Of a DNA stretch of 64,000 nt, positions 16,046-19,855 are shown one piece after another. Made by a program: the position numbers and the translations under genes. Within the stretch, counting starts at the first letter, position 1, and the number at the start of each line of letters is the position of its first letter. Below the pieces are notes generated by a model that made no database searches, had not been told where the DNA came from, and saw only the letters and a program-made list of their open reading frames with translations. The DNA is taken from positions 41,690-105,689 of the forward strand of contig VGOZ01000001.1 in the NCBI GenBank assembly GCA_016875715.1, read 5' to 3'. Source of the DNA: Chloroflexota bacterium (GTDB lineage: Bacteria; Chloroflexota; UBA6077; FW602-bin22).

Positions 16046-19000
16046 TCAGACCCCGCCAGGTATCTCGAGAACAACCACGTGATGGAGCGTCACATCGCCC
16101 ACCACGAGGCGATCGTTGCCGATCATTGCCAGACCCTGCGGCCGCTTCAAATCCTCAGAGGCGATGACCGCGCGGGAGGTGCCGTCGGACCCGATCACAT
16201 GGATTCTGCCGCTCTCGGGGTCGGTCACAAGGACCGTGCCCTGAGCTGACACGGCGACCTTGGCGCCGTGTAGGCTGCCGGATTTGGGGATCGCGATCTC
16301 GACGTCGGCCGAACCACCACTACCGAATCGGACCAGTTTCGAGGTTGCCGAATCCGAGACCCACACGTTTCCGAACGGGTCCGGTGACGCGCCAGTCGGC
16401 TCGACGATGTTCCCAGGGCCCGTCCCCCGCGAGCCGATGACGCCGAGTTGTTCGCCGCGCGGGCTGTACTTGACAATCCGACTCCCGCCCGTGTCCGCGA
16501 CGTAGACGTTGTCCTGGGCGTCGAGGGCCATGCCACGCGGGTGATAGAAGCGAGCGTCCGGCCCGCCGAACTGGGCAAGAATCGTCCCATTCGGGTCATA
16601 GCGCTTGATCCAGCCTGGGAGCGAGTCGAGGACGACCACGTTCCCCTCACTGTCGAGCGAGATCGCGAGAGGCTCCTGAAGGTTGGTTTCGTCGCCCCAC
16701 GCCAGGAGGAACTTTCCATCCGGCCCGAACTTCTGAATCCGATGATTGACCGTGTCGGCGACGTAGATGTTGCCCTCGCGATCGGCCGCCACGCCGCGAG
16801 GTTGATCGAACAAACCGCTCGCGGTGCCCGGTGCGCCAATGCGTACGAGGGTGTTCGCCGCGATCACCGGGACGTTGGTGGACGGGCCCGGCCGCGACGC
16901 GATCGGTTTCGAGAAAACACCGGTGACCGGCTGCGCGGGCTGCGGCGGCTCCGCGGGTGCAGGCCGCACGACCGGTGGCGGCACGACACGATCGGGGTAA
17001 CTGCCCAGTGGTGGAAACAGGTACTCCGTCGGAATGGGCTCGCGTCCTCGAGCAGGGGGTGTCCAAAAGACATTGACATAGGTGTGTCCGGTCCTGTCCA
17101 GGTAGCGCACACGAATGTCATGGAACCCGCGCGTCAGCACGAGGCCGCCTTCGCCGTAGTTGCCAATGTTCCTAGAGTTGTCGACGATGAGTTTTTCATC
17201 GATGTAGATCCATGACTCATCGATCGACGAAGCTCCAAATCGGTAGGCGCCATCGGCCGGGATGTAGAGCTTGCCCGTCCACTCGACGCTGTAGGGTCGC
17301 GGAAGCGGCAGAAGGTGGAAACGGTGCTGCAGCCCGGGATCGATCTGCTGGAGGCCTGGTTCCCCGGCCCATTCCGTACCGCGATAGTACTTGCCGAGCA
17401 AGCCGTTATTGGATACGGGCGCACGGAACAGGAACTCCCGGGGAATCGCCTGGAACCCGGTATCGGTCGGTGACCGCCACAGCAGCCTGATCTCGCCGTT
17501 CTTACCATCGGGCAGTTCGATCGACAACTGGTGATTGCCACGTGCCAGGATGGCACCCTTCTGACCGCCGCCACGGATCAGTTCCGTACCGTCGATCTTG
17601 AGCGATGCCGTGGCCGGCCCCTCTAACTTGAAGTCATAGAGTCCATACTCCGGCGCGGCCACGATCGAACTCCACTGCAGGACGTACGGCGACGGGGGGA
17701 ACTCGCCATCGACGAACTCGCCTAGGCCAACTGTCACCGTCCGGCGGAGCGGATCTCCACTCGCGACAGTACTCGCCCAGAGGCTGACGTCCGCGCCCTG
17801 CAAGCGCGACACGACCTCGGGCGGTACGAGGATCTCGTGCAGGACAATCGGACCCCCCGCGGGGTTCCGATGCTGCCTGAGAATCGCATCGGGGTACAGA
17901 CGGAGAACCGTCGCGACCTGGTTCGACGCTTCCGCGTTTACGAAGATCGTTGCGCCGGTGCCGTCTCGCAGCGGCAGTGATGTCGCCGGGTCGAAACGCG
18001 TGTTCGGAATCGACTTCGGCGCGATCAATCGGATGGATGGATGGTCCATGAGCGTCTGGTCGATGTACGGCTTGCCGATCGCTGCCCCGGAAGCGATCTG
18101 GCGGGCGATGATCGTCTCTGGCGTCGAGTGCGCCGCCCAGACGCCGGAGTCGCGTGCCTGTCGCACGAAGTAACGTTCCAGATTTTCAGGCCAGACTGCC
18201 ACGCACACGAGAACCACCGTGGCTCCGGCGATCACGGCCGTGTACCGTGGCGCCACGATCATCGCGCGGCCGGCGAGAACCAGCGGCACGCGCAGCCGCG
18301 CCTCGCCAAACAGATGTCTGAACTTCTCTACGAAAAGCGCCAGCGGCAGCGCCGCGAGCAAGGCTGAAGCGACCGAATTGTCGATCGTGCGATATCCCTG
18401 TGGCGCCTCGAAGGCAAGCGAGAGGATCCCTGCGAGCAGCATCACTGCCCACCAGATGAGTGGCGCGGCATACTCCGGCCGCCGGGCGCGCGCGAGCGCC
18501 ACGATGAAACCGAGGATTGCGAGCGCTGCGGTCGTGCTCTCGAGCATCGGACTACCCGGGAGGTTGTGGCGCCCATTCGCATCGCCGTGGACGTTGAACA
18601 TGAGGAGGTGCTTCCGTACGTTCTCGATCAGCGGCGCGTAGCTTCCGGCTTGCTCGATCTCCCGGAAGATCGTGACGTTCTCCGTACGTTCGTTGAAGAG
18701 TCGAGGATTCTGGTAGGCGAGCAACGCCAGGGGGCTCACCGCCAGCCACGTGAAGAGCGCGAAGATCACCGCGTTGACGTAGTGAGCCCGCAGCCAGGAG
18801 AGCCTGCCTGCGATCAGATGGTGGAGCCAGACAAGCGCGACGACCAGTGCGAACAGCCGCGCCGCGAAATAGAACTGCAGGCTCAACCCGAGAGCCAGGC
18901 CAGCGGCGGCGAACAGCGTCCGACGACCCGACTTCAACGCGTGCATCAGCAGACCGAGCGCGAGAGTGTTCAACGTCGTCGAGTAGATGCCCTGCATCGC

Positions 19001-19855
19001 GATCCGGCTGAAGGTGACGTGCCACGCCATCGTCGCCAGGATCGCCGCGGAGAGCAGGCCGTACGTCGCGCCGAACAGGGCACGACCGAGCAAGAAGATC
19101 GCGACGATCCCCAGCGATCCGAAGAGCGCGGGAACGAACCTCAGGACCGGCTCACCGGGGCCGAACAGGGCGACTAGCGGCGCGGAGAGGTACCAGGCCA
19201 TCGCCGGCAGCCCCTGCACCGGGCCAGCGCCTGCGACCGGTCGGTAGCTCGGCTCGCTCAGGATTCTCTGGATCTCGATGCCGGCGAACGCCTCGTCGGC
19301 CCACAGACCGAAGGGGATTTCGCCGAGGCGGAACATGCGCGCGCCGAGAGCCACCAGGAACAGGACGCCGACCGCGAGGGCGGCCCATCGGTTGCGCCAC
19401 AGCATCGCGCGCAGACTCGGTCGCGCGTCCAGGAAATAGGCTCCGGCCAGAGCCAGCGGCAGGCTTCCTGCGTAGAATGCCCAGGCGGTCGTGCCGCCGT
19501 TGGCCGATCCGAACAGACCCAGGCCGATGCTGTTGACGGCCAAGCCAGCAACGATGAAGGCTGCTCCGATGGAGAATGCCTTCCCGCTACCCGGACCGGG
19601 AAGTGCCATCGGAGCAATCGGCGGAGTTGTGGGATCGGCGTCGCGCAGTGCCCTGCCGAATACGATCCCGACGATGGCGAACAGCACGACCGCGTCGTAA
19701 AGGAATGTCCGCCCTTCCAGATACCCCTGGGCGACCAGAGCGACGGCGATCGCCACCACACTCCAGAAGAGGCCGACGATCGCCTTCCGATCGATGCGCG
19801 TGATCGGGCGGGCGCGCCGAGTACCGGCCATCGCCGTCTTCACGCTGTTACTCAT
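16046..19855 (-). CDS. 1269-aa GT39/ArnT-like polytopic glycosyltransferase fused to PA14-like + PA14 + six NHL repeats
   Basis: The N-terminal roughly 560 aa are polytopic with the acidic loop motif FGLWADEAFAGIE. The rest consists of a degenerate PA14-like module, a clear PA14 domain and a C-terminal NHL propeller (see the sub-features). Confidence 0.7.
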   Translation of the reverse strand: MSNSVKTAMAGTRRARPITRIDRKAIVGLFWSVVAIAVALVAQGYLEGRTFLYDAVVLFAIVGIVFGRALRDADPTTPPIAPMALPGPGSGKAFSIGAAFIVAGLAVNSIGLGLFGSANGGTTAWAFYAGSLPLALAGAYFLDARPSLRAMLWRNRWAALAVGVLFLVALGARMFRLGEIPFGLWADEAFAGIEIQRILSEPSYRPVAGAGPVQGLPAMAWYLSAPLVALFGPGEPVLRFVPALFGSLGIVAIFLLGRALFGATYGLLSAAILATMAWHVTFSRIAMQGIYSTTLNTLALGLLMHALKSGRRTLFAAAGLALGLSLQFYFAARLFALVVALVWLHHLIAGRLSWLRAHYVNAVIFALFTWLAVSPLALLAYQNPRLFNERTENVTIFREIEQAGSYAPLIENVRKHLLMFNVHGDANGRHNLPGSPMLESTTAALAILGFIVALARARRPEYAAPLIWWAVMLLAGILSLAFEAPQGYRTIDNSVASALLAALPLALFVEKFRHLFGEARLRVPLVLAGRAMIVAPRYTAVIAGATVVLVCVAVWPENLERYFVRQARDSGVWAAHSTPETIIARQIASGAAIGKPYIDQTLMDHPSIRLIAPKSIPNTRFDPATSLPLRDGTGATIFVNAEASNQVATVLRLYPDAILRQHRNPAGGPIVLHEILVPPEVVSRLQGADVSLWASTVASGDPLRRTVTVGLGEFVDGEFPPSPYVLQWSSIVAAPEYGLYDFKLEGPATASLKIDGTELIRGGGQKGAILARGNHQLSIELPDGKNGEIRLLWRSPTDTGFQAIPREFLFRAPVSNNGLLGKYYRGTEWAGEPGLQQIDPGLQHRFHLLPLPRPYSVEWTGKLYIPADGAYRFGASSIDESWIYIDEKLIVDNSRNIGNYGEGGLVLTRGFHDIRVRYLDRTGHTYVNVFWTPPARGREPIPTEYLFPPLGSYPDRVVPPPVVRPAPAEPPQPAQPVTGVFSKPIASRPGPSTNVPVIAANTLVRIGAPGTASGLFDQPRGVAADREGNIYVADTVNHRIQKFGPDGKFLLAWGDETNLQEPLAISLDSEGNVVVLDSLPGWIKRYDPNGTILAQFGGPDARFYHPRGMALDAQDNVYVADTGGSRIVKYSPRGEQLGVIGSRGTGPGNIVEPTGASPDPFGNVWVSDSATSKLVRFGSGGSADVEIAIPKSGSLHGAKVAVSAQGTVLVTDPESGRIHVIGSDGTSRAVIASEDLKRPQGLAMIGNDRLVVGDVTLHHVVVLEIPGGV
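16049..16816 (-). other. six-bladed NHL-repeat beta-propeller domain (C-terminus of the 1269-aa protein)
   Basis: There are six repeats of the NHL pattern, for example PRGVAADREGNIYVADTVNHRIQKFGPDGKF, PRGMALDAQDNVYVADTGGSRIVKYSPRGE and GNVWVSDSATSKLVRF. Confidence 0.8.
17056..17410 (-). other. PA14 carbohydrate-binding-type domain
   Basis: NNGLLGKYYRGTEWAGEPGLQQIDPGLQHRF...YSVEWTGKLYIPADGAYRFGASSIDESWIYIDEKLIVDNS...GFHDIRVRYLDRTGHTYVNVFWTPP is the PA14 signature. Confidence 0.8.

Follow-up and report, generated by a model that had tools for sequence, protein, structure and literature searches.

The 64,000-nucleotide stretch of contig VGOZ01000001.1 from a Chloroflexota bacterium that was analysed here, hereafter the window, carries on its minus strand an uninterrupted row of GT-C-type genes, A to I (Table 1). 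GT-C enzymes construct the outer sugar layers of cells; they modify lipid A, glycosylate proteins and contribute to the mycobacterial cell wall, and several serve as drug targets. Chloroflexota occur in large numbers in soil, sediment and wastewater, and the chemistry of their envelope is, to our knowledge, largely unexplored. We focused on gene F of the row, a single uninterrupted open frame of 1269 codons without internal stops that occurs once in its metagenome-assembled genome (MAG; 3.4 Mb, 94% complete). An initial annotation made from the letters alone had described its product as a four-part fusion of a GT-C-like transferase, a degenerate and a textbook PA14 module and an NHL propeller, and all four parts were recovered in the one polypeptide of 1269 amino acids (aa) at the positions given there. 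In addition, F possesses an N-terminal four-helix extension (residues 23-141), an alpha/beta domain (~590-687) and a proline-rich linker (949-990). The possibility that the frame might represent two genes is ruled out, since it contains no stop and 56 relatives of 1116-1376 aa are collinear with it over all domains.

Scanned as a whole, F matches three Pfam families above threshold, namely PMT_2, PA14 and NHL, and its domains were also scanned against Pfam as separate pieces (residues 1-556, 557-690, 686-812, 813-948 and 985-1269). Of the parts initially proposed, the transferase core, the canonical PA14 domain and the NHL repeats are thus recognized by hidden Markov models, but the first sandwich stays below threshold. 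AlphaFold2 (AF2) models were built with the family alignment for residues 70-1269 (predicted local distance difference test score, pLDDT, 90; predicted template modelling score, pTM, 0.78) and for residues 1-700 (pLDDT 91.4, pTM 0.91).

Table 1. Gene F, its parts and the further features of the window (positions in the window; residue numbers refer to F)
Feature	Position	Strand	Basis
Conserved GT-C-type row including F (A-I)	9443..34683	-	Pfam, NCBIfam; order kept across genomes
Gene F, putative GT-C glycosyltransferase with two PA14 and NHL ectodomains	16046..19855	-	open frame, collinear full-length homologues, AF2 pLDDT 90-91
Residues 1-155, basic N-terminus (predicted cytoplasmic) and four extra membrane helices	19391..19855	-	AF2 helices
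Residues 156-566, GT-C core, 11 membrane helices, outer loops 1 (EL1, 175-234) and 4 (EL4, 383-439)	18158..19390	-	PMT_2, Foldseek
D187-E188, candidate catalytic acidic pair in WADEAFAG, start of outer loop 1	19292..19297	-	family invariance
G424-P436 (GDANGRHNLPGSP), outer loop 4 motif	18548..18586	-	family alignment
Residues 567-687, juxtamembrane helices plus a small alpha/beta domain, C-terminal to the last membrane helix	17795..18157	-	AF2
Residues 688-812, degenerate PA14-like beta-sandwich	17420..17794	-	Pfam sub-threshold, Foldseek, shared motif
Residues 813-948, canonical PA14 domain	17012..17419	-	Pfam, phmmer
Residues 949-990, proline-rich linker	16886..17011	-	low pLDDT, length variable across family
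Residues 991-1269, six-bladed NHL beta-propeller	16049..16885	-	Pfam, AF2, Foldseek
A, PMT_2 and Chlor_Arch_YYY, 1697 aa	in row 9443..34683	-	Pfam/NCBIfam
B, YYY, 801 aa	in row	-	Pfam/NCBIfam
C, Agl23-like, 712 aa	in row	-	Pfam/NCBIfam
D, TIGR03663/Agl23 and NHL, 1030 aa	22153-25245	-	Pfam/NCBIfam
E, LA_3751-like, 717 aa	in row	-	Pfam/NCBIfam
G, small membrane protein with Pro/Thr linker, 328 aa	15057-16043	-	sequence features
H, PMT_2 and PA14-like, 959 aa	in row	-	Pfam/NCBIfam
I, pieces of a second H-type gene, 442-aa and 357-aa frames	9443-12233	-	comparison with L014
Flippase-like membrane protein (LPG_synthase_TM PF03706 / TIGR00374)	8347..9459	+	Pfam 134.9 bits, NCBIfam 65.8 bits
Protein with strong Pro/Thr-rich tracts	833-2992	-	
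Protein with strong Pro/Thr-rich tracts, also CarboxypepD_reg and LysM domains	36531-37805	+	
Protein with strong Pro/Thr-rich tracts	43429-44865	+	

The membrane module of F

PMT_2 (PF13231) matches residues 217-366 with 36.1 bits in the whole protein and 37.8 bits in the piece of residues 1-556, above its gathering threshold of 26.1 bits, and the loop motif WADEAFAG highlighted in the initial annotation lies at residues 185-192. As a single-sequence phmmer search of residues 1-620 against the PDB sequences returned nothing meaningful, fold comparison was needed to place F among the GT-C enzymes. Foldseek returned only NHL and PA14 matches for the 1200-residue model, and the membrane part was therefore compared by means of the separate model of residues 1-700. 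Its best match is ArnT (5f15, E 8.4e-10, template modelling (TM) score 0.52 on the target), followed in this order by archaeal AglB, PglB, STT3, Pmt4, AftA, ALG9 and Emb, and every match at E<=1e-3 is a GT-C enzyme. The polytopic GT-C-like module is hence borne out by motif, profile and fold. ArnT, the undecaprenyl-phosphate-L-Ara4N:lipid A transferase (GT83; 5EZM/5F15), aligns over 613-615 columns on chains of 537-541 residues and shares the family PMT_2 with F at a sequence identity of only 16%; it possesses neither PA14 nor NHL nor the four-helix N-terminal extension, and its acceptor is lipid A.

F is not a member of GT39 in the strict sense, of the TIGR03663 family or of GT53. Of the features that strictly define GT39, F has neither a MIR domain nor a match to Pfam PMT (PF02366), precomputed matches to which exist for a few relatives of F. 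The Agl23-type model TIGR03663 scores 28.4 bits on F, below its cut-off of 126 bits, and the Pfam arabinosyltransferase family (GT53) gives no match, Emb being reached through Foldseek at E 7e-4 or worse.

The acidic pair of the WADEAFAG motif, D187 and E188, is invariant in 57/57 and 61/61 aligned family members of 25-60% identity, and is also retained in the H/I-type paralogues. The motif GD..N....P in outer loop 4 is likewise kept, with G424, D425, N431 and P436 invariant across the family alignment and N427, R429, H430 and P433 conserved to at least 90%; further invariant residues are R239, R284, R390 and P485/R489. Since these positions in the outer loops and the membrane core remain invariant at an overall identity of 25-35%, the alignment argues for F being a working enzyme. 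A second F-type paralogue with an NHL propeller, encoded in a genome of the same class (L011:12865-16353 (+)), carries Ala-Glu in place of the otherwise invariant Asp-Glu and is a candidate for a catalytically dead copy.

The AF2 model contains 15 membrane helices. Four of these (residues 23-48, 52-69, 92-115 and 121-141) form the N-terminal extension, which is present in the family but weakly conserved, and 11 form the core, spanning residues 156-174 to 537-566. The first 22 residues contain five Lys or Arg residues. Taking the N-terminus as inside, Lys and Arg account for 17 of the 89 residues in loops predicted inside, among them RARR (456-459) and 517-536, versus 12 of the 148 residues in loops predicted outside, among them the DE loop and the GD..N..P loop. 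In ArnT the N-terminus is cytoplasmic and the C-terminal domain periplasmic, and the odd number of core helices in F agrees with this arrangement. On the basis of the helix count and the positive-inside rule, residues 567-1269, about 700 aa, are predicted to be extracytoplasmic in an N-in/C-out topology. As the initial annotation had assumed, the prediction places the PA14/NHL part outside the membrane and not in the cytoplasm.

The predicted extracytoplasmic modules

Behind the last membrane helix, two short helices precede the alpha/beta domain, which is modelled with a pLDDT above 90. No Pfam family matches residues 557-690; P606, P628, Y654 and P655 of this region are nearly invariant in the family.

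The canonical PA14 domain (PF07691) is recognized at residues 816-942, corresponding to positions 17030-17410 and thus close to the 17056-17410 initially given for a textbook PA14 domain. It scores 61 bits in two stretches of the whole protein and 54.5 bits over profile positions 2-145 of 147 in the piece of residues 813-948, the gathering threshold being 24 bits, and a phmmer comparison with 6qdi gives an E value of 1.6e-17. This domain is the most conserved one of the family: in most relatives with 33-46% identity to F in the GT-C core, it reaches 40-60%. The first sandwich, examined as the piece of residues 686-812, yields a partial match to Pfam PA14 of 18 bits (E 0.0027), below the cut-off; the stretch YDFKLEG...IRLLWRSP by which it had initially been recognized lies at residues 740-796. 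Both sandwiches share the motif L..G.H.[LI]......L.W..P, and Foldseek aligns the pair over 289 columns with RsgI3 (6qe7), whose tandem PA14 dyad comprises 291 residues; 6qdi aligns in the same way. The initial wording of a degenerate PA14-like sandwich is a fair description of the first module. Its proposed kinship with the C-terminus of H is weak but detectable (BLASTP E 0.004), the corresponding value for the canonical PA14 domain against H being 4e-4.

The clostridial anti-sigma factors RsgI3 and RsgI4 (6QE7, 6QDI), whose dyads match residues 688-948 best in both sequence and fold, resemble F in carrying two consecutive extracytoplasmic PA14 modules; unlike F they are single-pass sensors and not enzymes. 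The PA14 modules of Flo/Epa adhesins and RsgI sensors contact the sugar through a calcium ion coordinated by a DcisD-N triad. Binding of pectin or xylan by the RsgI dyads follows this scheme, and an RsgI3 module without the triad binds on its own neither calcium nor pectin (PMC6852018). In F, by contrast, the DcisD positions are occupied by I878-D879, the first being Ile or Val in 39/57 and the second Asp in 47/57 family sequences, and the Asn position is D920, again Asp in 47/57; the stabilizing Tyr position 918 is Tyr or Phe in the family. As the triad is not kept, the glycan-binding role that the initial annotation took over from PA14 domains in general is not simply transferable to F. The strong conservation of the canonical domain suggests that it has a function, the ligand of which is not readable from the known motif.

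The linker behind the PA14 pair is disordered in the AF2 model at residues 966-984 (pLDDT <50), and its length varies in the family. It leads to the propeller, for which Pfam NHL (PF01436) scores 97 bits in the whole protein and 109 bits in the piece of residues 985-1269, with five repeats passing the threshold on their own. The AF2 model contains six blades of four strands each, which superimpose on the six-bladed NHL domains of Thin, TRIM2, TRIM3, TRIM71 and Brat with Foldseek TM scores of 0.80-0.88, in accordance with the six repeats initially counted. The NHL profile of F also matches the extracellular sensor propeller of PknD. Within the row, the Agl23-type neighbour D carries a C-terminal NHL propeller as well, which shares 41% identity with the one in F (E 8e-31). 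The distant genomes examined have retained the NHL fusions of D and of F, and both are therefore old.

The F family and the conserved gene row

A search among 5.8 billion proteins yielded about 60 clusters at 90% identity, 1100-1380 aa in length, with the same PMT_2, PA14 and NHL content as F, and all named ones are Chloroflexota MAGs. These relatives are already visible in the databases under automatic names such as 'PA14 domain-containing protein' and 'phospholipid carrier-dependent glycosyltransferase'. In the alignment of 57 sequences, almost every member extends over each domain of F; P0065 has no propeller and P0053 has only part of one. When residues 1-700 were compared exhaustively by phmmer with representatives of clusters at 50% identity, 571 matches were obtained at E<=1e-30. 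Among the best 150 of these, 61 carry PA14 and NHL (median 1246 aa) and 69 carry PA14 without NHL (median 908 aa); the remaining 20 have neither, are mostly short (median 648 aa) and may be fragments. Of 301 sampled Chloroflexota species, 29 have a match to F at E<=1e-50, about 17 of them at full length, and the matches are concentrated in the order and class of the window's own genome; one of two single-contig genomes of this order has an orthologue of 39% identity. In a FastTree phylogeny of the core and the PA14 region, the shorter H/I-type paralogues form a deep separate group and the NHL-bearing proteins fall into one large clade that includes six NHL-less rows; this is a quick tree with a weakly supported root, and some of the short rows are possibly truncated.

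The architecture, which the initial annotation had regarded as unusual, is hence the standard form of a large family; it is real, widespread in Chloroflexota and neither a one-off nor surprising in principle. In full-text literature searches, no paper turned up that treats PA14 domains and GT-C enzymes together, and searches on PA14, NHL, glycosyltransferase and Chloroflexi returned nothing relevant. This agrees with the initial remark that its author was aware of no characterized GT-C enzyme of this architecture. The design with attached binding modules has characterized precedents in AftD and EmbC.

The gene row is conserved together with F. GT-C neighbours of F were found in nine other genomes, in three of which the flippase-like gene is present as well. 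In a genome of the same genus (F 90% identical) the order is C-D-E-F-G-H-I followed by the flippase-like gene, and a MAG with an F of 62% identity has A-B-C-D-E-F-G-H-I and then the flippase-like, sulfotransferase and GT2 genes. At about 35% identity, a further MAG retains A-B-C-D-F, one more PMT_2 gene and the flippase-like gene, and in six further genomes (F 31-37% identical) F adjoins A/B-, D/E- or H-type genes. The row neighbours of the Agl23 type (TIGR03663) and of the Chlor_Arch_YYY type (TIGR03662 / DUF2298), known from Archaea and Chloroflexota, belong to GT-C subfamilies other than that of F. Next to the row, the opposite strand of the window carries the flippase-like gene, a sulfotransferase, a GT2 and a split transketolase-like pair. 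In four genomes the flippase-like gene marks the end of the GT-C row, namely in the window and at L014:18423-19652, L015:20454-21428 and L016:17674-18684, and is a candidate for flipping the lipid-linked donor.

Gene G starts two bases past the stop of F. Its product begins with an acidic, Asp/Leu-rich N-terminus and has one or more hydrophobic segments as well as a Pro/Thr-rich linker (RPTPTPIPT...PTPTVTP); the C-terminal domain of about 165 aa is beta-rich and matches nothing in Pfam or NCBIfam. G also follows F directly in the 62% relative, with 56% identity over 251 aa and the linker retained, and could be a partner or a glycosylation substrate of F.

Proposed function of F and competing explanations

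From the computed fold, motif, topology, family and synteny, we consider it probable that F is an active GT-C transferase of the ArnT/PMT/STT3 class, which decorates an envelope glycan or protein with lipid-linked sugar and has its binding modules built in. Taking the donor, the acceptor and the binding role of PA14 and NHL by analogy with related enzymes, the following course may be envisaged. A polyprenyl-phosphate-sugar would be made in the cytoplasm and flipped outward, for which the flippase-like neighbour is a candidate. F would take the sugar from this carrier in the outer leaflet, as similar GT-C enzymes do, and would use D187 and E188 to transfer it onto an acceptor at the external side of the membrane. 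The PA14 pair and the tethered NHL propeller may hold the acceptor or the growing product, comparable to the carbohydrate-binding modules of AftD and Emb or the MIR domain of PMT. F would then catalyse a single step in an extracytoplasmic glycosylation pathway of several enzymes, specified by the surrounding GT-C row; the pathway would most likely serve to build or decorate a glycan or glycoprotein of the cell envelope.

Of the characterized systems, AftD and EmbC are closest to F by design and ArnT is closest by fold. AftD combines the GT-C fold with three carbohydrate-binding modules that bind complex arabinans and have been interpreted as keeping a complex glycan acceptor in place (bioRxiv 10.1101/2019.12.22.885152), and the report on EmbC describes a lectin-like C-terminal domain (PMC3044687). 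Like F, AftD and EmbA/B/C (GT53) are polytopic GT-C proteins with a large extracytoplasmic part composed of several beta-sandwich binding modules, and each of them works alongside many other GT-C enzymes in an assembly pathway outside the cytoplasm, as is proposed for the members of the F row. This resemblance concerns design rather than family, as the GT-C subfamily differs and Emb is matched by Foldseek with an E value of only ~1e-3 compared to 8e-10 for ArnT. Furthermore, their modules are carbohydrate-binding modules instead of PA14 and NHL, and F has no acyl-carrier-protein partner, comes from another phylum and offers no evidence for arabinose. GT-C enzymes with attached binding modules are thus already known; the F family, with PA14 and NHL on a GT-C core, is uncharacterized.

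Several points weigh against F as a lipid-linked-sugar transferase with acceptor-holding modules. As to the enzyme making the donor, the neighbouring GT2 matches models of polyprenyl-phosphate glycosyltransferases only weakly. As described above, the calcium- and sugar-binding triad is not kept in the PA14 domains of F, and known motifs hence lend no support to a lectin function. An adjacent polyprenyl synthase was considered as the synthase of the donor lipid and set aside as evidence, being of the trans-type, GGPP-synthase-like kind and not a cis-prenyltransferase.

A wider proposal concerns the row as a whole. The six to nine GT-C genes might constitute a Chloroflexota-specific assembly line that uses lipid-linked sugars to make a major envelope polymer entirely on the outside of the membrane and parallels, as an independent system, the arabinan and mannan synthesis of mycobacteria; in this line the PA14 pair and the propeller would act as a new calcium-independent clamp on glycan or protein that keeps F on the growing product. 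We put this forward tentatively and regard it as doubtful. With several hundred clusters at 50% identity, PA14, NHL in about half of its members and a conserved GT-C row, the family offers an entry point to the envelope chemistry of Chloroflexota.

The main rival to the transferase reading is that F acts as a protein O-glycosyltransferase in the manner of PMT or TMTC, modifying Ser/Thr of Pro/Thr-rich linkers, with the NHL and PA14 modules binding the protein substrate. PMT/POMT (GT39) and TMTC1-4 share with F the DE motif in the first outer loop, which is a hallmark of PMT, a PMT_2-type core, the family to which Pfam assigns F, and an added binding domain. This added domain is a luminal MIR beta-trefoil in PMT and consists of TPR repeats in TMTC, whereas F has neither MIR nor TPR and carries its extra domains at the C-terminus instead of inserted in a loop. 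Pmt4 and Pmt1/2 are among the structural matches of F, but over only ~260-275 columns, and they are outmatched by ArnT and the oligosaccharyltransferases. The best-matching NHL structures (TRIM2, TRIM3, TRIM71 and Brat) bind macromolecules, the Brat and TRIM71 entries being RNA complexes, and the absence of the lectin triad from the PA14 modules would fit a protein ligand as well. Gene G, a membrane protein with a Pro/Thr linker conserved together with F in the 62% relative, is the candidate substrate, and the three other window proteins with strong Pro/Thr-rich tracts (Table 1) are possible O-glycosylation targets. However, such linkers are common in genomes of this kind, so that their presence in the window carries little weight, and Pro/Thr-rich open frames were found in none of six F loci from more distant genomes, while the locus of the same genus yielded only a short frame of 142 aa; a Pro/Thr-rich acceptor gene next to F is therefore not supported as a conserved feature. 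Taken together, we judge this explanation to be unlikely for F.

That F is a non-catalytic sensor or scaffold, using the GT-C fold as an anchor while PA14 and NHL sense or tether an external polymer as in RsgI or PknD, is highly improbable. The nearest solved relatives of its PA14 pair are indeed the polysaccharide-sensing dyads of RsgI3/4 (PMC6852018), the sensor propeller of PknD is among the NHL matches, and one paralogue in another genome has Ala-Glu for Asp-Glu. The invariance of D187, E188 and about a dozen residues in the outer loops and the membrane core is expected of an enzyme and not of an anchor, though, and F has no cytoplasmic output domain. Equally remote is a bifunctional F with a propeller of the lactonase, lyase or amidating-lyase type that processes the glycan modified by the GT-C module: Pfam SGL (SMP-30/gluconolactonase) scores 42-54 bits on F, above its cut-off, with weaker Vgb_lyase matches and Foldseek matches to virginiamycin B lyase and peptidyl-hydroxyglycine lyase, but these families overlap the NHL signal, the best matches in sequence and structure are non-enzymatic NHL domains, the conserved propeller residues follow the repeat pattern of NHL blades and no metal site was identified in the propeller.

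Two minor observations concern other genes of the row. The counterpart of gene I in the same-genus genome is a single open frame of 945 aa (L014:15599-18433), which is 85% identical to the first piece in the window, and by this comparison the copy in the window looks like a pseudogene or an assembly error. In a distant relative, a protein with LysM and M23 peptidase domains, of the peptidoglycan hydrolase type, is encoded directly after F (L016:13639-14802 (+)), which hints at a link of the row to the cell wall.

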